17,312 bases of DNA from a virus (taxonomy: Duplodnaviria > Heunggongvirae > Uroviricota > Caudoviricetes), in IMG/VR virus record IMGVR_UViG_2531839532_000013, positions 1-17,312 of that record, one strand, 5' to 3'. Shown piece by piece: positions 698-17,312 of the stretch. The position numbers were made by a program, and so were the translations under genes. The notes below the pieces were generated by a model that saw only the letters and a program-made list of their open reading frames with translations, was not told the origin of the DNA and did not search any database. How positions within the stretch are numbered: the stretch's first letter is position 1; each line of letters opens with the position of its first letter.

Positions 698-1060
698 GGG
701 GCTGATTCTGGATTCGACGGGATTTGCGAAACCCAAGGTGCATGCCGAGGGGCGGTTGGCCTCGTAAAAAGCCGCAAAAAATAGTCGCAAACGACGAAAA
801 CTACGCTTTAGCAGCTTAATAACCTGCTTAGAGCCCTCTCTCCCTAGCCTCCGCTCTTAGGACGGGGATCAAGAGAGGTCAAACCCAAAAGAGATCGCGT
901 GGAAGCCCTGCCTGGGGTTGAAGCGTTAAAACTTAATCAGGCTAGTTTGTTAGTGGCGTGTCCGTCCGCAGCTGGCAAGCGAATGTAAAGACTGACTAAG
1001 CATGTAGTACCGAGGATGTAGGAATTTCGGACGCGGGTTCAACTCCCGCCAGCTCCACCA
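698..1060 (+). ncRNA. ssrA: tmRNA (SsrA, 10Sa RNA), 363 nt, ending in CCA
   Basis: Starts GGGGCTGATTCTGGATTCGACGGG (tRNA-like acceptor 5' half), contains the tag-encoding frame, ends GGTTCAACTCCCGCCAGCTCCACCA (T-arm and acceptor 3' half); matches E. coli tmRNA as I recall it. Confidence 0.95.
787..819 (+). other. tmRNA internal tag reading frame (resume codon GCA to TAA) encoding ANDENYALAA
   Basis: GCA AAC GAC GAA AAC TAC GCT TTA GCA GCT TAA read directly at 787-819 inside ssrA. Confidence 0.9.
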
Positions 1061-1070
1061 AATAAATCAA

Positions 1071-1103
1071 GGGGTTACGTGAAAGCGTAGCCCCTTTTTC
1101 TTT
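1071..1103 (+). terminator. Rho-independent terminator of ssrA
   Basis: Stem GGGGTTACG (1071-1079) / CGTAGCCCC (1086-1094) with one G-U pair, loop TGAAAG, followed by TTTTTCTTT (1095-1103). Confidence 0.7.
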
Positions 1104-1203
1104 GGTAGTGGCGGCAAAATGGCGACAGACTTTTGCGTCCATCTTGCCTGTCGCCATCTTGAAATCATGCAAAGAGGTTTCACATGGAAGAACTTCACTT
1201 TGT

Positions 1204-2541
1204 TTACATCAATGCAAATGGTCGTATCTCCAGCACGCGCTGGATGGTTCCCATCGCATCCTTCGTCATCTGCTTTTCAATCACTTCAGGATTGAGTTTC
1301 AGCAGATTCATCCCTTCAAAGAAACTCTTGCTTTGCATGGTGGCAATGGACAATTCACGCACCATCGCGTTTGCTGCACTGGCTGCAACCTCTGGCGCAG
1401 CGCCCAGTGTCAGGAAGGTGGAACCCAGCGCCGCCGCTTTACGATAATCCAGACGGTCAGCCACACCGCCCAGACGTTGCATCACATCAATGATGTCTGC
1501 CCCTTTCGACATGGCGTTATCATCCAGATAGTTCAGCGCATCGCCGAGCTGTTCAATATTGCGGGTAGGTATTTTGTAGAGCTGGGCGATTTTCCCCAGA
1601 CTTTCTGACAGTTCATCCGCTGGCAGCTCAAAGGCTGTGGCCGCCTTTGCTGCCGTACTGGCGAAGGCCAGCAGGTCACGTTTCTGGTCTTCCCAGCTGT
1701 CGTCAGGGTTTGCGACGTTCATGCGCGCACCACCTTCAACCAGTGCAGCGAAATCCACCGCACCGTTTTCCATCGGCAACTGTTCGCTGGCAGCCTTGAT
1801 GGCATCCTGCATTTCATAAAAACGTGCAGTGCGGTTGCCATTATCGTCACGCAGGCCATTGACCTGCTTTGCCACACCTTTCATGGCATCTTCCATGCTG
1901 GTATAGCTTTTTACTGCCACCATCACTGGTGCGCCCATTGCCAGCCCTGCAGCCGTGGTGGTGGCTCCGGCACCTGCAATACGATCACGCACCTCCAGCG
2001 AACGGGCATAACTGGCACGCGCTGCATTCATCCTGCGCTGAGCTTCCCCCAGTCGCTTCAGCCGCGCCTCCTGTTTCGAAAGTTCCTGGTTATAACGTGA
2101 TGTTTCACGGGCTAAACGGGCAGTTGCTCCCGCATCGTCTTTCGCAGAAATTCCCGCCCGGTACAGTTCAGCACGCACAAGCGCCGTCTGCTGCTGCAGC
2201 TTTTTCTGGCGTTCTTCCAGGCGCTGAACAGCCAGCCGTTGACGGCCCAGAGCAACAACCTGACGTTGCGAAGGCGGCCCCATCGCTCCCAGTTCCTGAC
2301 TGAGCAAATTTGCACGCTGGCGGGCATAGTTCAGCCTGTCGCCTAATTTCTGATTTTCTGCCTGCAGCTTTCGGAAGCTGTCCAGACTGCTCCCGGCCTG
2401 ATCAAGCTGCTTTATTGCATCGCGGGATTTTTTGACAGCAGCAGCCAGTTCTCTTGAACTGGCCTGCGCAGATCGAAATGGGCGGGTGAGCTTGTCAACC
2501 GCATTAAGAATGACCTGCAGACGCAGGTTGTTATCACTCAT
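1204..2541 (-). pseudogene. Tail tape-measure protein (P2 gpT-like), N-terminal 445-aa fragment, C-terminally truncated
   Basis: ATG at 2541 overlaps the stop of the upstream -1 frame extension (ATGAGTGA), the P2 E'/T arrangement. N-terminal coiled-coil region rich in Q/R/A/L followed by a tape-measure-core-like segment (KAAALGSTFLTLGAAPEVAASAANAMVRELSIATMQ). The ORF stops at 445 aa, about 140 bp from the ssrA terminator, whereas P2-type tape measures are roughly twice that length. Confidence 0.65.
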
Positions 2542-2713: not shown

Positions 2714-2892
2714 GTGACAACCTCAACCGACATGGCAGTGAGATCTGCCGGGTCCATCTCTGCAATTTCCTGTGCAGTCAGTGCCGGACTGGAGATGCGG
2801 GGGATCACGGTCATCATCGCGTTTACATCCATACCGCCTGTTGCACGCTGGCGGTAGTCCTGGCGGCTGTCTTCATGGCTCAGCTTGTCCAC
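2668..2892 (-). CDS. Tail assembly chaperone gpE-like ORF (possibly 5'-truncated); zero-frame product of the E/E' frameshift pair
   Basis: Small ORF immediately upstream of the tape-measure start on the same strand; contains slippery heptamer T TTT TTG twelve codons before its stop. The ORF-track start at 2892 is GTG; first ATG is at 2832. Assignment is by position and frameshift architecture, not by sequence identity. Confidence 0.5.
   Translation of the reverse strand: MDKLSHEDSRQDYRQRATGGMDVNAMMTVIPRISSPALTAQEIAEMDPADLTAMSVEVVTFLLKKSVLAGFPTA
2707..2713 (-). other. Programmed -1 ribosomal frameshift slippery heptamer TTTTTTG (X XXY YYZ form)
   Basis: Plus-strand caaaaaa at 2707-2713 reads T TTT TTG on the minus strand, in frame as ACT TTT TTG within the gpE-like ORF; the same heptamer is used by the P2 E/E' tail chaperone genes as I recall. 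Confidence 0.55.
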
Positions 2893-3617
2893 CTCAGCTG
2901 TGCCTGCAGGGCTGTCTCCAGCTCAGACAGGCGTTCTTCCTGTTCAGACAGGGATTTTTCGGTGCGCGCACTCAGGTTTTGCTGCTCAGTGGCAACCAGC
3001 TCCACGGCCTTATGCACATCAGAGAACCGGGCATCATCGGACTGCTCTTTTTTGGTGAACAGCGCCGTGACACGGGCAAACAGGGATGGTTTTTCGTCCT
3101 GGACTTCTTCCAGTTCGATCACCGTTTCCTCTGCAGCGGTAAAAAGATTGGCGGGATTCTGCTTGCGGTTTGCCAGCGGGTTATGGGCTGCACTGGCGCT
3201 GAATGTCAGCATTTCCGTACCCAGACTGGCGGGATCATCAGTGGCGGCCAGGCCAACCAGGTAGGCTTTGCCCGTATCAGCGAACTTCGGGCTGACTTCC
3301 ATAGAGGTGAATAATTTCTGGCCTTTTTTCACCAGTTCCACCAAGGACTCCGTTGGCTCAACGTCGGCATACAGCGCCATCTTGCCTGCCAGCGGACCTT
3401 CCGTGATTTCTTCAGCAAACAGCGCCGTCACCTTGCCGTAGCGGTTAAAGGTGCTGTCCGGAAGATAAGACTTGATGTGCTCAAGGTTAATCAGCGCGGT
3501 ATACACCGCCGGGTTGTAGCTGGCTGCCATCTGTTCCAGCCATTCACGCTGGATTTCACGTCCGTCGGTAGTGGCACCTTCCACCCCGATGCGAAAACGC
3601 TTTGCTTTCACTGTCAT
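2880..3617 (-). CDS. O: Capsid scaffolding protein gpO (P2 family), 245 aa; C-terminus probably altered by a deletion junction
   Basis: ATG at 3617 with GGAG upstream; protein shows the gpO pattern (RIGVEGATTDGREI..., INLEHIKSYLPD..., KAYLVGLAATDDPASLGTEMLTF, SDDARFSDVHKAVE). It is shorter than I recall for P2 gpO and ends in LRWTS directly overlapping the gpE-like ORF. Confidence 0.8.
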   Translation of the reverse strand: MTVKAKRFRIGVEGATTDGREIQREWLEQMAASYNPAVYTALINLEHIKSYLPDSTFNRYGKVTALFAEEITEGPLAGKMALYADVEPTESLVELVKKGQKLFTSMEVSPKFADTGKAYLVGLAATDDPASLGTEMLTFSASAAHNPLANRKQNPANLFTAAEETVIELEEVQDEKPSLFARVTALFTKKEQSDDARFSDVHKAVELVATEQQNLSARTEKSLSEQEERLSELETALQAQLRWTS

Positions 3618-3759: not shown

Positions 3760-5526
3760 ATGAACACCACACTGACACCCGCAGATCTCGATCCCCGTCG
3801 GCAGGCCATGCTGCTGTACTTTCAGGGATACCGCGTAGCCCGCATTGCTGAAATGCTGGGCGAGAAAGTTGCAACCGTTCACAGCTGGAAAAAACGCGAC
3901 AAGTGGGGTGACTATGGGCCGCTGGATCAGATGCAGCTCACCACCGCCGCACGCTACTGCCAGCTCATTATGAAGGAGCACAAAGAAGGGAAAGATTTCA
4001 AAGAGATTGACCTGCTGGCGCGCCAGTCGGAGCGCCACGCGCGGATCGGCAAGTTTAACAATGGCGGCAACGAAGCCGACTTAAACCCTAACGTCGCCAA
4101 CCGCAACAAAGGCCCGCGCCGTCAGCCGGAAAAGAATGTTTTCACCGATGAGCAGATTGAGAAGCTGGAAGAAATCTTCCATTCCTCCATGTTCAACTAC
4201 CAGCGCCACTGGTGGGAAGCCGGAAAAGCCAACCGCATCCGCAACCTGCTGAAGTCACGCCAGATCGGCGCGACCTTTTACTTTGCCCGTGAAGCCCTGA
4301 TTGACGCCCTGCTTACCGGACGTAACCAGATTTTCCTTTCCGCCAGCAAGGCACAGGCCCACGTCTTTAAGCAGTACATCATCGACTTCGCCAAAGAAGT
4401 GGAGGTGGAGTTGAAAGGCGATCCGATGGTGCTTCCTAACGGGGCCACGCTTTACTTCCTCGGCACCAATGCCCGCACTGCCCAGAGTTATCACGGCAAC
4501 CTGTATCTGGATGAATATTTCTGGATACCGAAATTCCAGGAGCTGCGCAAAGTGGCTTCCGGTATGGCTATTCACAAAAAATGGCGACAAACCTATTTTT
4601 CCACGCCATCCAGCCTGACTCACAGTGCTTATCCGTTCTGGTCCGGTGCGCTGTTCAATCGTGGGCGCAACAAAGCCGATAAGGTGGACATCGACCTGTC
4701 CCACAGCAATCTGGCCCCCGGCCTGCTGTGCGCAGACGGGCAGTACCGCCAGATAGTCACTGTGGAAGATGCGGTGCGCGGCGGCTGTAACCTGTTCGAC
4801 CTCGACCAGTTGCGCATGGAGTACAGCCCGGACGAATACCAGAACCTGCTGATGTGCGAGTTTGTGGACGATCTCGCGTCCGTGTTTCCGCTCAGCGAGC
4901 TGCAGGCGTGCATGGTGGACAGTTGGGAAGTCTGGACCGACTTTCATGCTCTGGCCCTGCGCCCGTTTGGCTGGCGCGAAGTGTGGATCGGTTATGACCC
5001 GGCAAAAGGTACGCAGAACGGCGACAGCGCCGGATGCGTGGTGGTGGCACCGCCAGCCGTGCCGGGCGGTAAGTTTCGCATTCTTGAGCGTCACCAGTGG
5101 CGCGGGATGGACTTCCGCGCCCAGGCTGACGCAATCAAAAAACTGACCGAGCAGTACAACGTGACCTACATCGGCATCGACTCAACCGGCGTTGGTCACG
5201 GGGTTTACGAGAACGTGAAAGCGTTCTTTCCTGCCGTCCGGGAGTTTGTCTACAACCCCAACGTTAAAAACGCCCTGGTACTCAAGGCCTACGACATTAT
5301 CAGCCACCGCCGTCTGGAGTTTGACGCCGGACATACCGACATTGCGCAGTCATTTATGGCAATCCGTCGCGCCACCACCGCCAGTGGCAACCGCCCGACC
5401 TATGAAGCCAGCCGCAGCGAAGAAGCCAGCCACGCCGATCTGGCATGGGCAACAATGCACGCACTGTTTAACGAACCGCTGCAGGGCGAATCCGCCAATA
5501 CCAGCAATATTGTGGAGATTTTTTGA
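3760..5526 (+). CDS. P: Terminase large (ATPase/nuclease) subunit gpP, 588 aa
   Basis: ATG at 3760; strong resemblance to P2 gpP throughout (QAMLLYFQGYRVARIAEMLGEKVATVHSWKKRDKW, KSRQIGATFYFAREALIDALLTGRNQIFLSASKAQAHVFKQYII, WIGYDPAKG...DSAGCVVVAPP); stop TGA overlaps the Q start. Confidence 0.92.
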   Translation: MNTTLTPADLDPRRQAMLLYFQGYRVARIAEMLGEKVATVHSWKKRDKWGDYGPLDQMQLTTAARYCQLIMKEHKEGKDFKEIDLLARQSERHARIGKFNNGGNEADLNPNVANRNKGPRRQPEKNVFTDEQIEKLEEIFHSSMFNYQRHWWEAGKANRIRNLLKSRQIGATFYFAREALIDALLTGRNQIFLSASKAQAHVFKQYIIDFAKEVEVELKGDPMVLPNGATLYFLGTNARTAQSYHGNLYLDEYFWIPKFQELRKVASGMAIHKKWRQTYFSTPSSLTHSAYPFWSGALFNRGRNKADKVDIDLSHSNLAPGLLCADGQYRQIVTVEDAVRGGCNLFDLDQLRMEYSPDEYQNLLMCEFVDDLASVFPLSELQACMVDSWEVWTDFHALALRPFGWREVWIGYDPAKGTQNGDSAGCVVVAPPAVPGGKFRILERHQWRGMDFRAQADAIKKLTEQYNVTYIGIDSTGVGHGVYENVKAFFPAVREFVYNPNVKNALVLKAYDIISHRRLEFDAGHTDIAQSFMAIRRATTASGNRPTYEASRSEEASHADLAWATMHALFNEPLQGESANTSNIVEIF

Positions 5527-6566
5527 TGGGAAAGAGTAAGAAGAACCGAGCTGCGGCGACGAAACAGATCCAGCTTAAAAGTCAAACTACAGCCGAAGCA
5601 TTCAGCTTCGGCGATCCCGTTCCTGTTCTGGACCGCCGTGAACTGCTGGACTATGTGGAATGCGTACAGATGGACCGTTGGTATGAGCCGCCCGTCAGCT
5701 TTGACGGACTGGCGCGCACCTTCCGCGCCGCCGTGCATCACAGTTCCCCGATTGCAGTAAAGTGCAACATTCTGACCAGTACCTATATCCCTCATCCGCT
5801 GCTCAGCCAGCAGGCTTTTTCGCGTTTTGTGCAGGACTATCTGGTATTTGGTAACGCCTACCTGGAGAAACGCACGAACCGATTCGGTGAAGTTATCGCC
5901 CTTGAGCCTGCGCTGGCAAAATACACCCGACGCGGGTTAGACCTGGATACCTACTGGTTTGTGCAATACGGTATGACAACCCAGCCGTATCAGTTCACGA
6001 AAGGCAGCATTTTTCATCTAATGGAACCGGATATTAATCAGGAGATCTACGGCCTGCCCGGTTATCTTTCTGCAATTCCGTCTGCCCTGCTCAACGAGTC
6101 CGCCACGCTGTTCCGTCGAAAGTATTACATTAACGGCAGTCATGCAGGCTTCATCATGTACATGACCGATGCCGCGCAAAACCAGGAGGATGTGAACAAC
6201 CTCCGCAATGCGATGAAAAGCGCCAAAGGACCAGGTAACTTCCGCAATCTGTTTATGTACTCGCCTAACGGCAAAAAGGACGGGCTTCAGATCATCCCGT
6301 TGTCAGAAGTCGCGGCGAAGGATGAGTTTCTGAATATCAAGAACGTGAGCCGGGACGACATGATGGCAGCACACCGAGTGCCGCCGCAGATGATGGGGAT
6401 TATGCCTAATAATGTAGGGGGGTTTGGGGATGTGGAGAAAGCCAGCCGGGTATTTGTTCGGAATGAACTGATGCCTTTACAAAAACGCATTGCCGAAATT
6501 AATGAATGGTTAGATGAAGAGGTAGTCAAATTTGAATATTATGGCTTAGAAAATAATCAGTCATAA
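5526..6566 (+). CDS. Q: Portal vertex protein gpQ
   Basis: ATG at 5526 overlaps the P stop (TTGATGG); the ORF-track start at 5523 is a TTG. Co-oriented with and coupled to gpP and divergent from gpO, as in P2. Confidence 0.85.
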   Translation: MGKSKKNRAAATKQIQLKSQTTAEAFSFGDPVPVLDRRELLDYVECVQMDRWYEPPVSFDGLARTFRAAVHHSSPIAVKCNILTSTYIPHPLLSQQAFSRFVQDYLVFGNAYLEKRTNRFGEVIALEPALAKYTRRGLDLDTYWFVQYGMTTQPYQFTKGSIFHLMEPDINQEIYGLPGYLSAIPSALLNESATLFRRKYYINGSHAGFIMYMTDAAQNQEDVNNLRNAMKSAKGPGNFRNLFMYSPNGKKDGLQIIPLSEVAAKDEFLNIKNVSRDDMMAAHRVPPQMMGIMPNNVGGFGDVEKASRVFVRNELMPLQKRIAEINEWLDEEVVKFEYYGLENNQS

Positions 6567-6572
6567 AAAAGA

Positions 6573-6605
6573 AGTGAACAAGTTGAAATTATCAGCTTGT
6601 TCACT
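6573..6605. terminator. Bidirectional rho-independent terminator between convergent Q and the Q-cos cargo genes
   Basis: Perfect 10-bp stem AGTGAACAAG (6573-6582) / CTTGTTCACT (6596-6605) with a 13-nt loop; A6 run upstream on the plus strand (a U-run for the minus strand) and a weak T-rich tract downstream. Confidence 0.65.
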
Positions 6606-6621
6606 ATTATCTGTATTATCT

Positions 6622-6891
6622 CTACTGCATCCGTCCGGGTAAATCGCTTTCATTGCGTAAACGCCAAGCTAACTGTTCACGATCCCAAACTATATCGTCT
6701 TTGCTAGCCTTTCTAAAATTTGCTAGCACAGTACTGCTTATAGCGTAATTACCATTCTCATTAGTTTTGATGAACTCGTCCCCAAAGTCATTGATTAGAA
6801 ATTCAACAACCTCGGACTGATACAACACACCATTAGAACGAGTGGTATTAACCATCCAGTCAACTATTTTTATCAGAGAATCATTCATCAT
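6622..6891 (-). CDS. Hypothetical protein, about 88 aa, unrecognised; second gene of an overlapping two-gene cargo unit
   Basis: ORF-track start at 6912 is TTG; tandem ATG codons at 6891 and 6888 preceded by GAGAG. The start overlaps the stop of the upstream gene by 11 nt (minus-strand ATGATGAATGA). Visibly AT-rich relative to the phage core. Confidence 0.55.
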   Translation of the reverse strand: MMNDSLIKIVDWMVNTTRSNGVLYQSEVVEFLINDFGDEFIKTNENGNYAISSTVLANFRKASKDDIVWDREQLAWRLRNESDLPGRMQ

Positions 6892-7090
6892 CACTCTCAG
6901 CTTTTGGAACAAATAAAACTAGAGTATCTTCATGAAAAACTCCGCGCTGGTTCTTAGCACCAATAAACCACGTACAAACTGCCATTGTAGCCGATTGGTA
7001 GTGATCAATTACCATGATTGGACCATGTCCTGTTGCATGTTTTACTTTCTGGCCCGGTGTATATTTTGCCACTCTCACGTCTCCTTTCAT
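6881..7090 (-). CDS. Small DUF2158 / YodC-like protein, 69 aa
   Basis: ATG at 7090; an AAGGAG motif inside the first codons precedes in-frame GTG codons, so the true start may be a few codons later. Sequence pattern (GDVRV...GHGPIMVIDH...CTWF...GVFHEDTLVLF) fits the small YodC/DUF2158 family as I recall it. Confidence 0.6.
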   Translation of the reverse strand: MKGDVRVAKYTPGQKVKHATGHGPIMVIDHYQSATMAVCTWFIGAKNQRGVFHEDTLVLFVPKAESDDE

Positions 7091-7151
7091 GTGTAAGTTA
7101 TCAATTTCAGAATATATCTACATTAATTGCAAGTAAACATGTTTGCGCGCG

Positions 7152-7170
7152 CTCGTATCCCCGCCACGCC
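7152..7170. other. Candidate cos (cohesive end) site of the P2/186 family
   Basis: CTCGTATCCCCGCCACGCC at 7152-7170 matches the reverse complement of the 186-type 19-nt cohesive end as I remember it at about 15 of 19 positions, including the CCCCGCCACGCC core; it lies between Q and the A side, where cos sits in P2. Confidence 0.45.
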
Positions 7171-7215
7171 TGCCCGCTTTATGTAGTGGTTTTCATGCAG
7201 GAGCATGATCTACGC

Positions 7216-7239
7216 AAAAGCCCGCCAGTTCTGGCGGGC
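7216..7239 (-). terminator. Terminator-like GC hairpin with U-run on the minus strand, just beside the cos candidate
   Basis: Stem GCCCGCCA (7220-7227) / TGGCGGGC (7232-7239), loop GTTC; plus-strand AAAA at 7216-7219 gives a U-run after the hairpin on the minus strand. Confidence 0.4.
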
Positions 7240-7512
7240 CTTAGCAAAAACGATCCTCAAACGATCATGCAATCTCATGCAGCATAGACATGCACAGACG
7301 AGTAAAGCGAATCGGACTTTACGCAAGGTGAACTCCTCAGCGGGCATAATCAGTATGTCGGAAGATCTCTAAAAATAAATAATTCGGTTAACAGGTATGC
7401 TTACAAAAGCATATATTTGATTAAAAATCATGTAAGGGGGAGGATCTCAAACTGAATCGCCACGGGTTTTACAAATTTCGATAGTCTCTCTAACGTTTCG
7501 GCTGAGGTCAAA

Positions 7513-7938
7513 ATGAAAAGCTTTTACGTATTAATTTTAATTCTGGTTGCAAGCTTTGTTAGCGTCCCAGTTCAGGCGGTAACAGCTAAAAACTATGAGA
7601 AAGGAACTAAAGCTCAACAGAAATCAATATCTTACCTTTCATGTGCATTCTATGGCAGTAGCACACAATTAGATCCTAGCTACACGGAGCAAGTACCTAC
7701 AGCCGATATCAAGATATTACAGAAAGCAGCTTACCACGCTTACAACGATGCGCTCTCATACTTTGGCTATGAGGAACCAGATCACGAACAACGCATAATT
7801 GATTATGCTGAATTTGTGGCGTCGCAAGAAGCTGTGTTATGGGATAAGCCGGGAATGAATGGAAAGCAGGTAACACTAATTGCTCGTTCTCTCTACAATG
7901 AGAGTAACTGTAACTTGTTACTGGACTCAATTAAGTAG
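7513..7938 (+). CDS. Hypothetical secreted (signal-peptide) protein, 141 aa; AT-rich cargo gene
   Basis: ATG at 7513 with GAGG 8 nt upstream; N-terminus MKSFYVLILILVASFVSVPVQA has basic-hydrophobic-AxA signal-peptide form; no family recognised; visibly AT-rich block. Confidence 0.65.
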   Translation: MKSFYVLILILVASFVSVPVQAVTAKNYEKGTKAQQKSISYLSCAFYGSSTQLDPSYTEQVPTADIKILQKAAYHAYNDALSYFGYEEPDHEQRIIDYAEFVASQEAVLWDKPGMNGKQVTLIARSLYNESNCNLLLDSIK

Positions 7939-8097
7939 GAAAAAGATGGTATTTTGCCCGTAGTTTCAACCTTAATCTCCGAACCTGTCGCAGAACGGGC
8001 GTTCACTCATCAAATAAACGCCACACCTAACGCCTCACTGTACTCGTTGTTCAACCTTGCTGACGCCAGAACCAAGTTCAGACGCCAGCAACTTTTC

Positions 8098-8331
8098 TTA
8101 ATGCAGCCAGCTGTCGTCTTCCCACACCTTCTGCATAATCTTCATCACTTGTTTTCTTTCTTCGTCCAGTTGCAGTCCGGTCAGTTCCACACCGTTAGAG
8201 CTACCTTTGCGGATGCGAATTACCGTTTTGGGATACAGGGGGCGCAGATTGCGGTAAAGCTCGGATTCAAGGGCGTCCAGGGGAGACTGGCTAATCTTCT
8301 GCTCTTTATCGATCATTATTTCAATGCGCAT
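8098..8331 (-). CDS. DinI-family protein (SOS-associated RecA modulator family), 77 aa from the internal ATG
   Basis: From ATG 8331 (GAGGGG upstream) the protein MRIEIMIDKEQKISQSPLDALESELYRNL...KQVMKIMQKVWEDDSWLH aligns by eye along its whole length with E. coli DinI. The longer ORF-track start at 8403 overlaps the upstream gene and is probably not used. Confidence 0.8.
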   Translation of the reverse strand: MRIEIMIDKEQKISQSPLDALESELYRNLRPLYPKTVIRIRKGSSNGVELTGLQLDEERKQVMKIMQKVWEDDSWLH

Positions 8332-8341
8332 AAAGGTCCCC

Positions 8342-8530
8342 TCAGCTGATGACATCCATTGAGCGGTTGTATTCGTGGGTTCTGATTTTTGCCATGAGTT
8401 CATCTGTCAGTTCAGAAACCCACTGCAAAGCCAGCCCCTTCTCTTCATCACTACACTCACTAGCCGCTACAAGCTTAAGAAAAAAATCAATGCGCTGGAG
8501 CTTCAAAGACTCCAAAAAATAGTCCTGCAT
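8342..8530 (-). CDS. Small hypothetical protein, 62 aa; possible Tum-like antirepressor N-terminal module
   Basis: ATG at 8530 preceded by AGGAGG; lies directly upstream of the DinI-like gene and downstream of a LexA box. The longer track ORF from 8632 has no comparable ribosome-binding site. Function is inferred from context only. Confidence 0.5.
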   Translation of the reverse strand: MQDYFLESLKLQRIDFFLKLVAASECSDEEKGLALQWVSELTDELMAKIRTHEYNRSMDVIS

Positions 8531-8571
8531 CTTTCCTCCTATGACACCACAAGCAATACTGTATACATAAC

Positions 8572-8591
8572 CACTGTTTATATTTACAGTA
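8572..8591. promoter_or_regulatory. LexA operator (SOS box), CTGT-N8-ACAG, upstream of the small-protein/DinI-like gene pair
   Basis: CACTGTTTATATTTACAGTA at 8572-8591 with CTGT 8574-8577 and ACAG 8586-8589; an additional half-site-like TACTGTATACATA at 8557-8569; located 42-61 nt upstream of the ATG at 8530. Confidence 0.7.
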
Positions 8592-8683
8592 TATAATAAT
8601 CTTACTGATGTAAAACGTTTTTTTACGTTCATTAGCCTGATATGCCTGGTATTATTAAGAGCACGAATTGTTAACCCGCGTAA

Positions 8684-11098
8684 TTAATACAGGTTTCGCC
8701 ACTTATCATCTTCCTGCAAACGCTGGTTCCGATAGAAGATACGCAGGCCTGCTCCTGACGGAATACTGCCGCCGCGAAGGAGTAAATCGACCTCTTTCTC
8801 GCTGCCATTAAATCCTCTGGACTTCAGTTCATAGACTAGCTGCTGTCGCTGATGGTCTGTAATTCGCTGTTTGTAGTCTTTACGCCGTTTCGGTTTCACC
8901 AGGCGTAACCTTGCAGCCAGTTCCCGGCGCTCTTTTTTGCTCATACTGTGCAGGTAATCGTGCAACTCCTTGTCATCCATGCGGGTAATGTCCGTCCTGG
9001 TATCCCCATCAGCTGATTTGTCTTTCCCTTGTTGGTTCAAATTTTCAGCAAGGGGACAGTTATTGCCACGAGTCCAAGGGGCGCAAGCGCCCTGGTCGGC
9101 TGCCGCCTCCTGAACGTCAACGGCTTTACGAACCATTTTCCACTTCACTGCATGAGTGCAGATCTTGCCCTCTGCAATGGGTGACCAGATGCCATAAATA
9201 CGAATACCGTGATCGCCATAGGCGGTCGGCTCTTCGTTGATTTCATAAGCGGTTCTGATGAGGTGATATTTACGGGGAACCAGTACGCCGCCCTGCTTCA
9301 TGATGTAGGTAGCAAAACAACCAGCATCAGCAGCAGCCAGAATGGCATCAAGACGCGGGTTATCCAGTACCGGCGCACCTGCTTTTTTGTCACCCTGTTG
9401 CCTTGCCACCTGACCAGCCAGCAAGCGAAGTTCACGGTAAGCCTGACGTCCCGGAATACCAAAGAAGCGGAATTGCTGTACACGATGCAGAGACGCCCAG
9501 GCATTAACGTATTCAGCGTTATCACGCAAGGATTTACCCGTTTCCTTACTGATCTCGCCAGCCAGACCACGCCCGTCAATGTTCTTACTGATGTATTTCG
9601 CGATGTAGCTTGTCGGCGTTCCTTTGCGCGGGTTTATCAGCTCAGACTTAAAGCGTGGCTCCGTGTTATTGCCCAGCTCCTCGCGGTCTTCACGGATGGC
9701 AAACTTACGCAGTAATGCAGTGATGGCGCGGCGGTCTTTTTTGCGCATGAAACACAATAGGTGCCAGTGAACGGTGCCGTCATGATGAGGCTCAGCCACC
9801 CGCACGCCATACCAGCGCAACCCGGCTTTATGCATAGCCTTACGAAATGCAGCAAACATGCCGACCAGATAATCGCTGCTTTGTCTTACCGTCGCATTTG
9901 TCCAGGTCGGGTTGGGCCTGCCGTTATTTAGCGTGGAATGGAAACGTGACGGACAGGTGATGGTGTAGAAAACGGCGCAGTCACCGCGCATTTCCGCGAT
10001 AAGCTCCAGACCTTTAACACAGGCCATCATCTCATTGCGGCGATGCGCAGGGTTGCTGCTGCTGGCGTTTACCACATCCTCCATGTCCAGTGTGTCGCCG
10101 TCTTCGTTCACCAGTTCATGAGAACGGAAAAACTCCAGTGACTTGCGGCGCTGCTCACGTTTATGCATCACGGCTTCATAGCTAACATAGGGAGATGCTT
10201 TTTTGCTGACCAGGCAGACAGCACGCAACTGCTCTTCCCGCCATTCGCAACGCATCTTCCATAATTTCCGATACCACCAGTCGGCGCACAACATACGCGC
10301 CAGCGAACCCGGAATGAGTTCATAGGGCACGGGTTTGCGGCGGTTTCTTTTCCGACGAAGTTGCTCAAACGCAGGCGGTATGACATCCAGTCGCAGGGTT
10401 TCCGCTGCTACCTTTTCCCATGTCTTGCGGATTTCTTCTGGCTTAACATCATCGGTGGCATACAAATCGCCACAAGCGGCATCAAGGCACATGCTCATAT
10501 GCGCAGCTACCAGGGTGGACAGGCGTTTTACCTGATCCTGACTCATTTCAGGCAGAATCAGCAGGCCGTCCAGCCCTTCATGGCTTGCCATAAAGCGAAA
10601 AGAAGTGGATAGCTGACTGTCGCGTACATGCTCCAGCCGTTCCAGACATGGCTTAATCGTCTTACGCAAATAGCGGGAATAAGCCTTTGGCCTGCCCAGT
10701 CTGCTGAAGTATTCAATACGTTGCATCAGCGGCTTGCTGATATGGGAAGGCTGGGCGTTAACGTCCGCCAGAATGACCATGTCTGGATTAAAACGCTGCT
10801 GCTCATGCGCCAGCTTTGCCCGGCTAATAAGCTTATCCTGCTCCATTTCGCGTTGGACAGGATCACGGGATTCATTAAAGAAATAACGCTCCCAGACCTG
10901 ATCACTCAGTGCCTCGCGGCGCAGCTGTTCCTGCTCGTTATCGGTAGCGTACAGAGTGATCAGGTTTGAAAGCGCAGAAACCGGCGCAACTTCCGCCGGG
11001 TCCAGATAAGGGTTAATAGCCTTTTTCGGGCTGTTCCATGAGAATGCTGCGGCGACCTCGTTAACGCCGCTGCAGTTGTTCATATCGGCATGACTCAT
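8684..11098 (-). CDS. A: Replication initiation endonuclease gpA (rolling-circle initiator), 804 aa
   Basis: ATG at 11098 overlaps the Dam stop (minus-strand ATGA); HUH-type motif within [10 protein letters not shown]; size and position at the end of the early operon match P2 gpA / 186 A. Confidence 0.85.
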
Positions 11099-11952
11099 GC
11101 ACGTACTCCGTACACGGCAGAACTATCCACGCCACGCGAATAATCAAATCCCACCCAGCAGCGCGGCCCGGAAACAGCAATGATTTCTGTTGCTGATTTA
11201 CCCTCGCCAGCTGCCACACCGATGCTGCGTTTTACCTTGATATAGTGGTGAGTAAAATTGCGATACAGCGAACGGATCAGGGATGTGTCACTGTTAGAAA
11301 CAATGACCGGATGTCCTTCTGATGACCGATGTTCAAGAACGGATGCAAGGTGATACTGGTCATCTTCAGTGAAACCGTCAGTGTGATAACCGGAAAACGT
11401 ACCGTCATACGGCGGATCGCAATACACCACATCCCCCGCCTTCAACATCGCCAGCGTTTCATCAAAGCTGGCGCAGATAAACGTTGCCCGCTGGGCTTTT
11501 TCTGCAAATGCGCGAATTTCTTTTTCAGGGAAATACGGATTTTTATAATTACCGTAGGGAATGTTGAAATGCCCGCTCTTGTTATAGCGACATAAACCAC
11601 GGTAACCGTGACGATTGAGATACAGGAAATATACCGCTTTCATGAAATCAGTAATTTCAGTTGAGTAATTAAACTCCTGCCTTATGTTGTAATAAGCCAC
11701 CTCCCTGTTTGCGATCTCAAATAAAACTCTGGCGCGAGATATAAATGATTCACAATCAGCAGCAACCTTTTTATAGAGGTTGATTAAATCAGGATTAATA
11801 TCCGCAACAAGATAGCTGGGGTACTCCGTCTCCATCATCACTGCACAGGAACCCGCGAAAGGTTCAACCAGTCGCGGGCCAGCAGGAAGGTGTTTTTTCA
11901 GTTCGGACATAATTGCGGTTTTATTTCCCGCCCATTTCAGGATGGTGCTCAT
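11095..11952 (-). CDS. DNA adenine methyltransferase (Dam family), about 285 aa
   Basis: ATG at 11952 with GGAGG upstream (track start 12012 is TTG); N-terminal LKWAGNK, AdoMet-binding-like EPFAGS, and catalytic DPPY motif; an unusual C-terminal tail reaches the A start. Confidence 0.85.
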
Positions 11953-12176
11953 ACAGCACCTCCGTTGTAATGTTTGCCTTTCAGCTCTGCGATTTCCTGA
12001 CAGGTAATGCAAAGCTGCACTCCAGGAATGGCGCGGCGGCGTGCTGGCGGAATTGGCACTTCACATTCAATGCAAAGCACGCGAGACACGCCCGGTGTTT
12101 TGGCACGGGCAGCACGAATATGGCGCTGGCGTTCTTCTTCAACGCGCTGCTGTACGAGATCCATTGCATCAGCCAT
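11949..12176 (-). CDS. TraR/DksA-type C4 zinc-finger protein, 75 aa
   Basis: CxxC-N17-CxxC (CIECEVPIPPARRRAIPGVQLCITC); start ATG overlaps the upstream stop (TAATG) and its stop overlaps the Dam ATG (ATGA). Confidence 0.7.
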   Translation of the reverse strand: MADAMDLVQQRVEEERQRHIRAARAKTPGVSRVLCIECEVPIPPARRRAIPGVQLCITCQEIAELKGKHYNGGAV

Positions 12177-13893: not shown

Positions 13894-14526
13894 ATGATAC
13901 AGGTAAAGGCTGGAGAGAATACAGGGGGAAGAGAGGCTATCCATAGACTAATGGCAGCCTATGATTTCAAGTCCAGACAGCAACTTTGCGATCACTTAGG
14001 CGCATCAAAAAGCACCATGGCAAACAGATACTTAAGAGATAGTTTTCCTGCAGAGTGGGTGATTCAGTGCGCCTTGGAAACAGGAGTTTCTTTACTGTGG
14101 CTAACCACCGGACAGGGAGAGCCAGGTCCAAACATTAAACCTAAAAAAAATATCAATTCCGTGAACTCCAGCAAGGTTGTACCTCTTTCTGAACTAGTAT
14201 CTCCTGAAATTGACAAGGCGACTCTCAACGGTGGTTTATTGGTCGATGCTGGAAAAGCAATCATTGATAGCAGCATACTCCCCTCAGACTCAAGCAACCT
14301 ACTGCTGGTGACTACTTCTGGTGATTCTTATTTAATAGATCGCAACCAAACACCACCAGTAAATGGTATGTGGTTAGTCGATATCGACGGGATAAAAAGC
14401 ATTGTTAAATTGACTCGGCTCCCGGGAAACAAATTAGTAGTGCATCAGGATGATTCATCGTTTGAGTGCGGTCTGGATGACATTGAGGTAGTAGGCCGCG
14501 CACTGAAAATCATTAAGAGCCTTTGA
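13894..14526 (+). CDS. CI-type immunity repressor (phage 186 CI-like), 210 aa
   Basis: ATG at 13894 with AGGA upstream; N-terminal HTH region (...STMANRYLRDSFPAEWVIQCALETGVSLLWLTTGQGEP) resembles 186 CI; immediately upstream of and co-oriented with int. Confidence 0.75.
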   Translation: MIQVKAGENTGGREAIHRLMAAYDFKSRQQLCDHLGASKSTMANRYLRDSFPAEWVIQCALETGVSLLWLTTGQGEPGPNIKPKKNINSVNSSKVVPLSELVSPEIDKATLNGGLLVDAGKAIIDSSILPSDSSNLLLVTTSGDSYLIDRNQTPPVNGMWLVDIDGIKSIVKLTRLPGNKLVVHQDDSSFECGLDDIEVVGRALKIIKSL

Positions 14527-14527
14527 T

Positions 14528-15541
14528 ATGACCATCAGAAAACAGCCGAACGGAAAATGGTTGTGTGAGTGCTATCCCAATGGACGCAATGGCAAGCGCG
14601 TGCGTAAGCAATTTGCTACGAAAGGCGAAGCCATTGCGTTTGAAAGCTTCACAATGGAAGAAGTGAATAAAAAACCGTGGTTGGGTGAAAAGGATGATCG
14701 GCGACGCCTATCAGAATTAATTGAGCTTTGGTATTCCCTGTATGGTCAAACACTCGCAGACCCCAAGCGCCTCATGGCGAAACTTAGAATTATCTGTAAT
14801 GGTCTAGGCGATCCCATCGCCTCAGAACTGACAGCTGGTGACTTTACAAAATACCGCGAAGCACGGTTAAAAGGTGAAATACGAAATGAAGATGGCACAC
14901 TTATGTCGCCCGTAAAGCCCCGTACGGTAAACCTTGAACAGCGCAATCTATCATCTGTGTTCGGTACATTAAAAAAACTAGGACACTGGTCAGCACCAAA
15001 CCCGCTGGCAGGACTTCCGACCTTCAAAATTGCCGAAGGTGAGCTGGCTTTTCTTTCCACGGACGAAATCAAGCGCCTGTTGGCGGCATGTGCTGAATCT
15101 CAAAACCCTAGCTTACTAATGATTGCAAAAATATGCCTAGCTACTGGCGCACGGTGGAGTGAAGCCGAAAATCTGCAGGGCCACCAAATATCGAAATACC
15201 GAATTACTTATACAAAAACAAAAGGCAAGAAAAACAGAACAGTACCCATATCACAGGAGCTGTATGACGAACTCCCAAAGAACAGAGGGAAGTTATTCTC
15301 ACCATGTAGAAAAGCCTTTGAACGAGCAGTAAAACGGGCAGGTATAGATCTACCGGATGGCCAATGCACCCACGTGCTGCGACATACGTTTGCTAGCCAC
15401 TTTATGATGAATGGCGGGAACATACTTGTGCTAAGGGATATTTTGGGACATTCGGATATCAAGATGACCATGGTTTACTCACATTTCTCACCAGATCATC
15501 TTGAAGATGCCGTTACTAAGAACCCATTAAACTTGATATAA
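14528..15541 (+). CDS. int: Tyrosine integrase, P2/186 type, 337 aa
   Basis: ATG at 14528, 1 nt after the repressor stop; strong resemblance to P2 Int including GRNGKR near the N-terminus, LATGARWSEA, HVLRHTFASHFMMNGG and the catalytic-tyrosine region MVYSHF. Confidence 0.92.
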   Translation: MTIRKQPNGKWLCECYPNGRNGKRVRKQFATKGEAIAFESFTMEEVNKKPWLGEKDDRRRLSELIELWYSLYGQTLADPKRLMAKLRIICNGLGDPIASELTAGDFTKYREARLKGEIRNEDGTLMSPVKPRTVNLEQRNLSSVFGTLKKLGHWSAPNPLAGLPTFKIAEGELAFLSTDEIKRLLAACAESQNPSLLMIAKICLATGARWSEAENLQGHQISKYRITYTKTKGKKNRTVPISQELYDELPKNRGKLFSPCRKAFERAVKRAGIDLPDGQCTHVLRHTFASHFMMNGGNILVLRDILGHSDIKMTMVYSHFSPDHLEDAVTKNPLNLI

Positions 15542-15554
15542 AACAGCCAAAATT

Positions 15555-17312
15555 CTATTTCATCAAGTAATCCAATTCATCCTTCATAGGTATAACTTGC
15601 TCATAAAGTCTATGGTAGGATTTTCCAATTGCACCCCTAAATTGAATAAGTTTAGGGGAAAAGCTACCGATATTAATAATATGTTCTTGCGCTATACCAG
15701 GATATGGATCGATAAAAATAATCTCTGTCATACCTAACTGATAAGCTTTTTTAGCACAAAGTTCACAAGGGCTAGCTGTAGTATATAGTTTCCCTCCATT
15801 AATACCGACCCCACCATATTTGGCCAATTGCAAAAAAGCATTCTCCTCTGCGTGCAATGCACGGGTATGCACTTGATTCCCTTTCTTTTCATCATCAAGG
15901 CTGTTGTGAATATCTTTAAAACAATATGGCAAATTAAGTCCTTTAAAAACAGTAGAACTTGAATCACTCGCCCTTATTTTTATTAAATTTTCTTTAACTT
16001 TACTCCTAAATTTTGTATTACTTCGTTCGTACAGGCTATATGTTCCCTCATCAAAATCATGCAATAACCCATCAAATGACCTCATAGAACAAGGAACTTG
16101 ACCTTTTGCTACATCGTTCCAACCAACTGACTTGATAGAGTTATCATTATCTGTCACAACCGCCCCTACTTGCCTAGATATACATCCAGAATTTAGTTTT
16201 ACAGTATATGCAACTTGCATAACCCTTTCCATGGCGGTAGGAGATATTAATCCAGGGTGTTGCATTAATGATACATACCACGCAATTTGTGCTTTGAGAA
16301 AATTATTATTATCAAATTCTTTTTTAGGGTTAAAAAAATGTATATCTGAAATTTCAATGCATTTTTTTACATTAGGATTAGTAAGATGATTATACTCGCC
16401 ATCTCCTTTACCAGATTCTTCATCATTAATTTTTTTTATCTGTTCCTCTGAGAACTTATGTAATTTCTTTAAATATCTGGTTCGATGTTCATCTGGTGCA
16501 TTTATAGAAACCAGATGGAATGCAGCATATCTATCTTTGAAGAATTTAGCTTCATACGGGTTACGTATCGCATCAATGACTATATACGCTTTATTATTCT
16601 TTACTTTTCTAATTATTTTAATAACACGATTAATTGTTTCAGGTAAATGAAAAACAGCCTTTGGAATAAAGTCTTGATTTTCATAATCTACATCAACCTT
16701 CCCTATTCTTCTAATTGACTTTCCTGCTGACTGATATAGCTCAATATATAAACCTGGCTCTAGTTCATTTAATTCCCTTTTAAAATCCCGTGTAAATTTT
16801 CGAGTAAGAGTTAATATCCTAATAAAGGTATCTTTCCCCCTGCCTTTAAAGTCAATCTCATCATCATGATTAAGAAGATTTTTTATCACCTTAAGATATT
16901 TTATCTTCAACAAACTTTTAGCGAACACACCATTAACAACCAGTTTCTTGGCTGCCTTAAAGGAAATCGAATTTTCTTTTTTATCGGGGATTTTACTTGC
17001 AGAAAACTGAATGAATTTAGCTAAGGCCGATGGAGATAAAAGGAGCAAATATATTGAAATGAGATCACTGACCTTTATCGAATAGAAGTTCTTCCAATGA
17101 GTCTCTGCAAAATTTTTTACTATTTCATAACGCCGCAAATCCAATCCTTTATAATACTCAGCCAAGACGTTACTATCTGGAAAAGATATTTTTTTTTGTT
17201 CTAAAATATTTGCTGCAGTAGTACATCCTGAGCCAGTTCTCCCAGTTAAACCAATAAGAATAAATTGACTATTTTCTAAAAAAAGCTCACTAATAAATTT
17301 GTGTTCTCTCAT
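15555..17312 (-). CDS. P-loop nucleotide-kinase-like / dCMP-deaminase fusion protein, 585 aa (AvcD / defensive dCTP-deaminase-like)
   Basis: ATG at 17312-17310, the last three bases of the window, so the true start could lie upstream. N-terminal P-loop GLTGRTGSGCTT (residues 21-32); C-terminal zinc-deaminase motif HAE (487-489) ... PCELC (515-519) followed by the dCMP-deaminase-like tail AKKAYQLGMTEIIF. Strongly AT-rich; convergent with int, stop codons 13 nt apart. Confidence 0.7.
   Translation of the reverse strand: MREHKFISELFLENSQFILIGLTGRTGSGCTTAANILEQKKISFPDSNVLAEYYKGLDLRRYEIVKNFAETHWKNFYSIKVSDLISIYLLLLSPSALAKFIQFSASKIPDKKENSISFKAAKKLVVNGVFAKSLLKIKYLKVIKNLLNHDDEIDFKGRGKDTFIRILTLTRKFTRDFKRELNELEPGLYIELYQSAGKSIRRIGKVDVDYENQDFIPKAVFHLPETINRVIKIIRKVKNNKAYIVIDAIRNPYEAKFFKDRYAAFHLVSINAPDEHRTRYLKKLHKFSEEQIKKINDEESGKGDGEYNHLTNPNVKKCIEISDIHFFNPKKEFDNNNFLKAQIAWYVSLMQHPGLISPTAMERVMQVAYTVKLNSGCISRQVGAVVTDNDNSIKSVGWNDVAKGQVPCSMRSFDGLLHDFDEGTYSLYERSNTKFRSKVKENLIKIRASDSSSTVFKGLNLPYCFKDIHNSLDDEKKGNQVHTRALHAEENAFLQLAKYGGVGINGGKLYTTASPCELCAKKAYQLGMTEIIFIDPYPGIAQEHIINIGSFSPKLIQFRGAIGKSYHRLYEQVIPMKDELDYLMK

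Follow-up and report, generated by a model that had tools for sequence, protein, structure and literature searches.

Anti-phage activity has been described for a dCTP deaminase of Escherichia coli AW1.7. Expressed from its native promoter, the enzyme made E. coli resistant to several phages, and dCTP was depleted on T7 infection (10.1101/2021.04.26.441389). The AvcID system of Vibrio cholerae (DcdV-DifV) is built on an enzyme of the same family, with a P-loop kinase-like domain and a dCMP deaminase domain, and Vibrio AvcD deaminates dCTP and dCMP upon phage-induced transcription shutoff. In V. cholerae, the gene for the RNA AvcI (DifV) directly precedes avcD on the same strand, and the two are transcribed together. 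The minimal AvcI comprises 152–174 nt, and the V. parahaemolyticus transcript is approximately 280 nt long. The upstream regions of the homologues from V. parahaemolyticus, P. mirabilis, and ETEC H10407 were found to neutralize their own enzymes, and that of ETEC H10407 is the sole E. coli AvcI with experimental support. The known AvcI sequences have no detectable similarity to one another; thus, the absence of homology at a new locus proves little.

The interval from integrase to att is described, in the main text of a recent study, as a minor defense hotspot of P2 phages that holds 3% of the P2 systems, and a similar oddity is reported there for PICIs (NAR 2026, PMC13586616). That text gives the location class only and does not mention deaminases. 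The defense gene and its hotspot in P2-like prophages are both already recognized, the hotspot being minor and recently described. The open reading frame (ORF) at positions 15555–17312 of the DNA analyzed here is very probably a prophage-borne anti-phage dCTP deaminase, carried as a self-contained cassette of approximately 1.88 kb between the int stop codon and the P-arm repeats of the phage attachment site. As at the published hotspot, a defense gene sits inside an att-delimited element; here, the insertion point was resolved to a few bases and belongs to the ssrA-integrating Fels-2 lineage.

Prophage backbone and the deaminase gene

The window, i.e., the whole 17,312-nt stretch under analysis, begins on the ATG of smpB (1–483). 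The integration target ssrA, the tmRNA gene, follows at 698–1060 on the plus strand (ARAGORN tmRNA, tag ANDENYALAA). By sequence comparison, the prophage is of the P2 family, 186/Fels-2 type. Its backbone comprises a truncated tape-measure gene (1204–2541, minus strand), a truncated gpO (2880–3617, minus strand), the terminase gene gpP (3760–5526), the portal gene gpQ (5523–6566), a variable stretch between gpQ and replication gene A, gene A itself (8684–11098, minus strand), dam (11095–12012, minus strand), and a cII/apl region between dam and CI. The 186-type CI repressor gene (13894–14526, plus strand; Pfam Phage_CI_repr and Phage_CI_C, RefSeq annotation) precedes int and shares its operon orientation. 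The integrase is a 337-aa tyrosine integrase of the 186/Fels-2 type (14528–15541, plus strand; Pfam Int_N and Phage_integrase). The DNA from cI to int was 92% identical to that of Klebsiella phage Kp4845-2, 82% to SEN8, 80% to SopEPhi, and 75% to Fels-2. The prophage is defective, with two internal deletions at approximately 1211 and 2816, and the deaminase is thus currently immobile via phage particles in the strain of the window.

A spacer of 13 nt between convergent stop codons (15542–15554) forms the left edge of the cargo cassette, and no intrinsic terminator was predicted in it on either strand. Beyond it lies the gene for a 585-aa anti-phage dCTP deaminase of the AvcD/DcdV family (15555–17312, minus strand), the ATG of which occupies the last three bases of the window. 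The GC content of the gene and its cassette was 33%, compared with 50% for the prophage backbone. Its sequence assigns the ORF unambiguously to the anti-phage dCTP deaminase family. The protein scored 421.2 bits against NCBIfam NF041025 (anti-phage dCTP deaminase; cutoff 400) over residues 17–577, matched the PADLOC dCTPase model PDLC02373 (E = 3e-146) over residues 8–581, and is already named "anti-phage dCTP deaminase" in RefSeq. The architecture consists of an N-terminal P-loop kinase-like domain and a C-terminal dCMP-deaminase domain. The latter matched Pfam dCMP_cyt_deam_1 (PF00383; E = 4.8e-15) and aligned to the T4 dCMP deaminase structure 1vq2 (E = 4e-10), and the search of solved structures returned a match for this domain only. 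No Pfam domain was called in the N-terminal region, which is covered by the NF041025 and PADLOC models. The C-terminal motifs H487-A-E-E-N and P515-C-E-L-C, as well as the P-loop-like motif G21-L-T-G-R-T-G-S-G-C-x-T near the N-terminus, were invariant in six E. coli alleles. With more than 4300 database clusters at E ≤ 1e-10, the protein belongs to a large family. Annotated members of the clade were present in 38 of 5426 complete E. coli genomes, and the window allele in seven.

The AW1.7 deaminase showed 75.8% amino acid identity to the window deaminase over the full length, with the same two domains and with invariant deaminase and P-loop motifs; over the N-terminal 180 residues, the two were only 64% identical. 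Each system consists of a single gene with a short native upstream region, located next to an integrase where a mobile element ends. The AW1.7 gene differs in its surroundings, which consist of a tRNA-Phe island with a P4-type integrase, a DUF927 primase, and 524 nt of unrelated upstream DNA. By analogy with the AW1.7 and Vibrio AvcD homologues, the window allele would also be active in defense.

Attachment sites and the slot downstream of int

The first-pass annotation, made from the window alone, had noted that the int stop codon (15541) is followed 13 nt later by the stop codon of the convergent deaminase gene, with no copy of the ssrA 3′ end in between. It had concluded that either the gene was inserted between int and att or the prophage boundary was remodelled. 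The coordinates were confirmed, and no ssrA-end copy was present in 14000–17312. The ssrA 3′ end (GGTTCAACTCCCGCCAGCTCCACCA) had its sole copy in the window at 1036–1060 when up to three mismatches were allowed. The 14-mers of the att core had no match in 14000–17312 at up to two mismatches, the longest common exact word being 8 nt; neither the spacer at 15542–15554 nor int held an att repeat.

A search for a direct repeat of the ssrA end beyond 17312 had been proposed. The window was extended with 42 kb of E. coli 300709 (NZ_CP025903.1; coordinates in this sequence are denoted L001), to which it was 99.9% identical by megablast, with one mismatch in the last 5755 nt. An exact 46-nt direct repeat, ATGTAGGAATTTCGGACGCGGGTTCAACTCCCGCCAGCTCCACCAA, was found at L001 5701–5746 (window 1016–1061) and at L001 22236–22281, and no match of such length is expected by chance. 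The first copy is the attL core (window 1016–1061), comprising the last 45 nt of ssrA plus one base. The second, read in L001, is the attR core, which extrapolates to approximately 17535–17580 in window numbering, i.e., approximately 223–268 nt beyond the window end, and lies 222 nt upstream of the deaminase ATG (L001 22013). As the attL and attR repeats bracket the deaminase, the gene is inside the prophage, and the insertion between int and att was borne out.

Both cores are flanked by phage-derived arms, so that the core, which equals the ssrA 3′ end, has repeats of the Int arm type on either side, the arrangement of a 186-type attP. The P′ arm of attL (1061–1211, plus strand) supplies the terminator hairpin of ssrA and contains 186-type Int arm repeats at 1109–1116 and 1120–1127 (direct) and 1149–1156 (inverted). 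It was identical to the attL of prophage BE2-5 until approximately 1211, where it ends at the deletion junction into the tape-measure gene, and it aligned with its counterpart in the circular SEN8 genome. On the other side, the 125-nt P arm is intact, with two arm repeats at L001 22123–22130 and 22134–22141 (extrapolated window 17422–17429 and 17433–17440), and it aligned with those of Fels-2, SEN8, SopEPhi, and eight other prophages. Reverse-complemented, the arm repeat TGGCGRCA corresponds to the Int arm consensus published for the 186 type, tgccGCCActt (PMC3448106); six copies were counted in the whole window, three of them in the P′ arm.

All seven complete E. coli genomes that have the window allele, as well as IMG/VR contigs L034 and L037, contained the ssrA-end repeat with unchanged spacing from the gene. 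The DNA past the core varied: a P4-type integrase island in 300709 (with a recombinase, two ParB proteins, NACHT, and a relaxase), ypjA in strain 127, and other flanks in L034 and L037. The identity between strains stopped exactly at the core end, a break that marks an element boundary.

The window ends exactly on the deaminase start codon, as the first-pass annotation had stated, and this abrupt end is best explained by gene-boundary trimming of the provirus call; the start of the window on the smpB ATG points the same way, as do several IMG/VR contigs cut at the same base as the window end. Such trimming removes attR and the control region of the cargo from provirus calls, and thus cargo at the edge looks like a replacement of the att site.

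The empty state of the insertion site was provided by Fels-2 and the circular SEN8 genome (Felsduovirus), in which the int stop codon is followed after approximately 5 nt by the arm repeats, TGGCGGCA-N3-TGGCGGCAG, and after approximately 100–117 nt by the core; attP is placed 117 nt past int in the own annotation of Fels-2. Both phages share with the window prophage the cI-int module (75–82% DNA identity), the ssrA core, the layout of the P and P′ arms, and the phage-supplied ssrA terminator, and differ from it in the empty slot. The comparison with prophages lacking the insertion, which had been suggested from the window, thus placed the cassette (L001 20243 to approximately 22115) exactly between the int stop codon and the arm repeats. 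When nine ssrA-integrated E. coli prophages were aligned, the block of approximately 125 nt from arm to core was conserved, and the stretch from the int stop codon to the repeats was unrelated throughout.

The slot held diverse cargo. Diverged deaminase alleles of the E1433, NCTC9038, and L039 types were 70–71% identical in amino acid sequence to the window deaminase, and a Citrobacter braakii prophage carried an orthologue with 83% identity. All four of these diverged slot deaminases were convergent with int. An HNH-motif protein occupied the slot in EC26 and WS4437A-1, three different hypothetical proteins in Z1323PEC0012, in KL53 and BE2-5, and in E371, and a 506-aa ORF in Klebsiella phage Kp4845-2. 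SopEPhi carried orfY, one of the other documented occupants of the exact point between the int stop codon and the repeats. In total, at least 11 related prophages or phages had different or no content in the slot, as expected of a hotspot between integrase and att. At the base level, the few bases between the int stop codon and the arm repeats are a point at which ssrA-integrating Fels-2/186-type phages swap defense cargo. In E. coli, one dCTP-deaminase clade has its main verified location in this slot, and the slot position was verified in all nine prophages inspected.

Of the 23 IMG/VR contigs with a deaminase relative, 21 had int (91–100% identical) convergent just downstream, and the arm repeats lay 90–138 nt from the ATG where the upstream DNA was present. 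The IMG/VR provirus contigs L035, L036, L045, L046, and L048 start exactly at the deaminase ATG.

Upstream region and alternative readings

The 222 nt between the ATG and the attR core consist of approximately 100 nt of cassette-specific DNA and the P arm of approximately 125 nt, which is common to prophages with unrelated cargo. The cassette-specific part contains a predicted leader of approximately 42 nt with an AGGTG ribosome-binding site and a candidate promoter, TTGCAA-17-AATACT, at L001 22091–22063 on the minus strand (extrapolated window approximately 17362–17390). The candidate matches eight of the 12 sigma-70 consensus positions, which is below the scan threshold. The first-pass annotation had given an AvcI-like small RNA as an example of an upstream partner that could be hidden beyond the window. 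Neither a structured small RNA nor a second gene emerged from the 222-nt region, in which the only ORFs were spurious ones crossing the core. RNA folding of the 222-nt region and of 132 nt was no better than that of shuffled sequences (z = −1.24 for the 222-nt region and +1.62 for the cassette-specific part). An Rfam scan of L001 19000–24000 at E ≤ 10 returned only an ssrA fragment and a sub-threshold match to the end of IsrM just downstream of the core.

Comparison among homologues gave a similar picture. When the upstream regions of 13 homologues were compared by blastn, similarity was detected only where the whole mobile element was shared, and otherwise in at most the last 35 nt. The upstream region was conserved in the C. 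braakii orthologue to a degree that did not exceed that of the DNA flanking it. In the four diverged slot alleles, the 90–138 nt from the ATG to the repeats were AT-rich and mutually unalignable, and no conserved element was found among them except AT-rich promoter-like stretches. Relatives of 576 aa in other elements had at least 500 nt of gene-free upstream DNA, which was not conserved between elements. No homologue was detected by blastn in the ETEC H10407 genome with either the window allele or the LF82 allele; the AvcD clade of this strain is too distant for blastn detection from the window gene.

These data bear on the reading in which the deaminase is the toxin of an AvcID-like type III toxin–antitoxin pair and an AvcI-like RNA just upstream holds the enzyme inactive until infection. 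The arrangement in V. cholerae and the neutralizing upstream regions of three homologues are precedents for it, the dissimilarity among known AvcI RNAs weakens any argument from missing homology, and the gene-free DNA upstream of the 576-aa relatives also counts in its favor. We consider the reading unlikely for the window gene because the cassette-specific DNA spans only approximately 100 nt (L001 22014 to approximately 22115), compared with 152–174 nt for a minimal AvcI, and the next 125 nt are the attP P arm. The four other slot alleles manage with equally little upstream DNA and without a conserved element, the folding scores gave no signal, the only Rfam match in the region was the ssrA fragment, and no intrinsic terminator was found between the putative RNA and the ORF. 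The window locus thus differs from V. cholerae AvcID in having no detectable AvcI, and a canonical AvcI would not fit upstream of the window deaminase. A short or unusual upstream RNA may be present. An upstream region this short is mildly puzzling if every AvcD-family enzyme is taken to need an AvcI RNA. Two points of the locus retain mild interest, namely that an AvcI-type RNA has no room there and that the slot is defined at the base level.

Two further readings concern the boundary and the enzyme, and both fared worse. A metabolic role, in which the protein would be a housekeeping or phage-metabolic dCMP deaminase of the ComEB or T4 cd type, draws on the C-terminal domain, which matched dCMP_cyt_deam_1, T4 1vq2, and, weakly, ComEB. 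The ComEB score was 41.6 bits against a cutoff of 219, and for metabolic phage deaminases, the alignment was confined to the last 170 residues (29% identity); the anti-phage models matched both domains across the full length (residues 8–581), and the 75.8%-identical AW1.7 enzyme is proven to defend against phages. A metabolic role is therefore very improbable. Least probable of all, with almost no weight left, is the remodelled prophage end that had been offered as the second explanation, in which the deaminase came from the neighboring ssrA island or the host and abuts a truncated prophage without an int-proximal att. The two deletions elsewhere in the prophage and the second integrase island that follows in 300709 are compatible with such remodelling, but it is refuted by the position of attR, as the attR core and the intact P arm lie distal to the deaminase. 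Furthermore, the unit of int, deaminase, and attR recurs with at least three different outer flanks, including strains without the second island, and in the intact prophage of strain 127. The gene was never found without an adjacent 186-type int among the 5426 E. coli genomes, each of its seven occurrences being beside this int, so it is not a gene conserved in prophage-free strains.

Mobility and predicted expression of the cassette

As a prophage-borne defense cassette within an att-delimited element, the deaminase travels with the phage. The phage integrated into the 3′ end of ssrA, giving attL at 1016–1061 and attR past the window end. In the lysogen, the deaminase would be expressed from its predicted promoter, by homology to the AW1.7 and Vibrio AvcD enzymes. 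When an infecting phage stops host transcription, the enzyme would deaminate dCTP and dCMP, and DNA replication of the invader would be starved of dC.

In strain 127, the same pair of int and deaminase belongs to an apparently complete prophage of approximately 31 kb, which has different cargo in its classical A–Q hotspot. Intact-looking prophages of this kind suggest that the deaminase can be carried in virions. The deposited phage genomes (INPHARED, August 2025) contained no close homologue, the best match having 27% identity over part of the protein. In the C. braakii orthologue, the deaminase DNA was 81.7% identical to that of the window and the int DNA 85%; this similar divergence indicates that the cargo diverged with the phage and was not a recent acquisition.

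The geometry of the locus suggests one further idea, which we regard as quite unlikely, more so than an AvcI-type partner: the slot deaminases may run without an AvcI-type RNA and be wired instead to the state of the prophage. The predicted deaminase promoter begins approximately 35 nt from the Int arm-type repeats, and the deaminase converges head-on with the constitutive cI-int transcript of the lysogen, with no terminator between. Thus, Int occupancy of the P arm or antisense transcription from cI-int could set the level of the deaminase. If such wiring were true, the expression of the deaminase would shift on induction, excision, or superinfection.

Deletions and variable cargo in the prophage

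Two deletions have left the window's prophage defective. In one of them, the P' arm (the attP flank beside the attL core) is joined directly, at approximately 1211, to an internal part of the tape-measure gene (window 1061-1211; positions 5746-5912 of L001, a 42-kb region of E. coli 300709, NZ_CP025903.1), and therefore, ogr, D, U, and the C-terminus of T are missing. At the other (window ~2541-2880; L001 7517/7518), a truncated tail-assembly gene abuts a C-terminally truncated gpO, and N through F are gone. The intact counterpart was found in E. coli strain 127. The classical P2 A-to-Q defence hotspot (window 6567-8683) contains small genes, which encode DUF6953, a DinI-like protein, and two proteins of hypothetical status. 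The prophage of strain 127 is nearly identical elsewhere but has genes for an S8 peptidase and an AAA ATPase at this position (L013 18799-22066). Thus, within one phage lineage, the int-att cargo is constant and the A-to-Q cargo differs.

Position of the deaminase gene

The stops of the deaminase gene and int are separated by only 13 nt in the window allele. In contrast, in the diverged NCTC9038-type alleles, the two stops are 399 nt apart (L044 5732-6130; also L043-L052), and this non-coding spacer contains the perfect hairpin CAAGATGATCAATAAATATTGATCATCTTG. In unrelated elements, relatives of the deaminase are likewise located at the element edge, adjoining a recombinase (L009, L017, L027, L012, and L011). 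The order in AW1.7 and C. freundii is tRNA-Phe, a 152-aa ORF, the deaminase, a P4-type int, and then DUF927. The relative in Providencia immediately follows an integrase, that in LR-29-1 adjoins two serine recombinases and is 100 nt from a dusC junction, and that in LF82 lies within an ICE.

Record ends and the region around attR

The first base of the window falls on the smpB ATG (1) and the last on the deaminase ATG (17312); several IMG/VR provirus contigs begin precisely on the same deaminase ATG (L035, L036, L045, L046, and L048). Trimming at gene boundaries strips attR and the cargo promoter off such provirus records.

Beyond attR, a second ssrA island follows in tandem (L001 22282-42013), with genes for two recombination enzymes, a P4-type integrase (NF007246, 445 bits) and a serine recombinase, as well as two ParB genes and genes for an ankyrin protein, a relaxase, and a NACHT protein that includes a RelA/SpoT fragment; it looks like another mobilisable, defence-rich island. 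An IsrM match directly past the core was sub-threshold (42 bits versus 376).

The P arm, the attP flank beside attR, contains a strong sigma-70-like site on the + strand (TTGAAA-N18-TATAAT, 11/12 matches; L001 22197-22226, extrapolated to window ~17496-17525), located 10 nt ahead of the attR core and reading into the ssrA fragment displaced by integration and then the neighbouring island. It may be no more than the AT-rich IHF region of attP. Fels-2 and SEN8 also have a sigma-70-like site there, which is weaker than that of L001.
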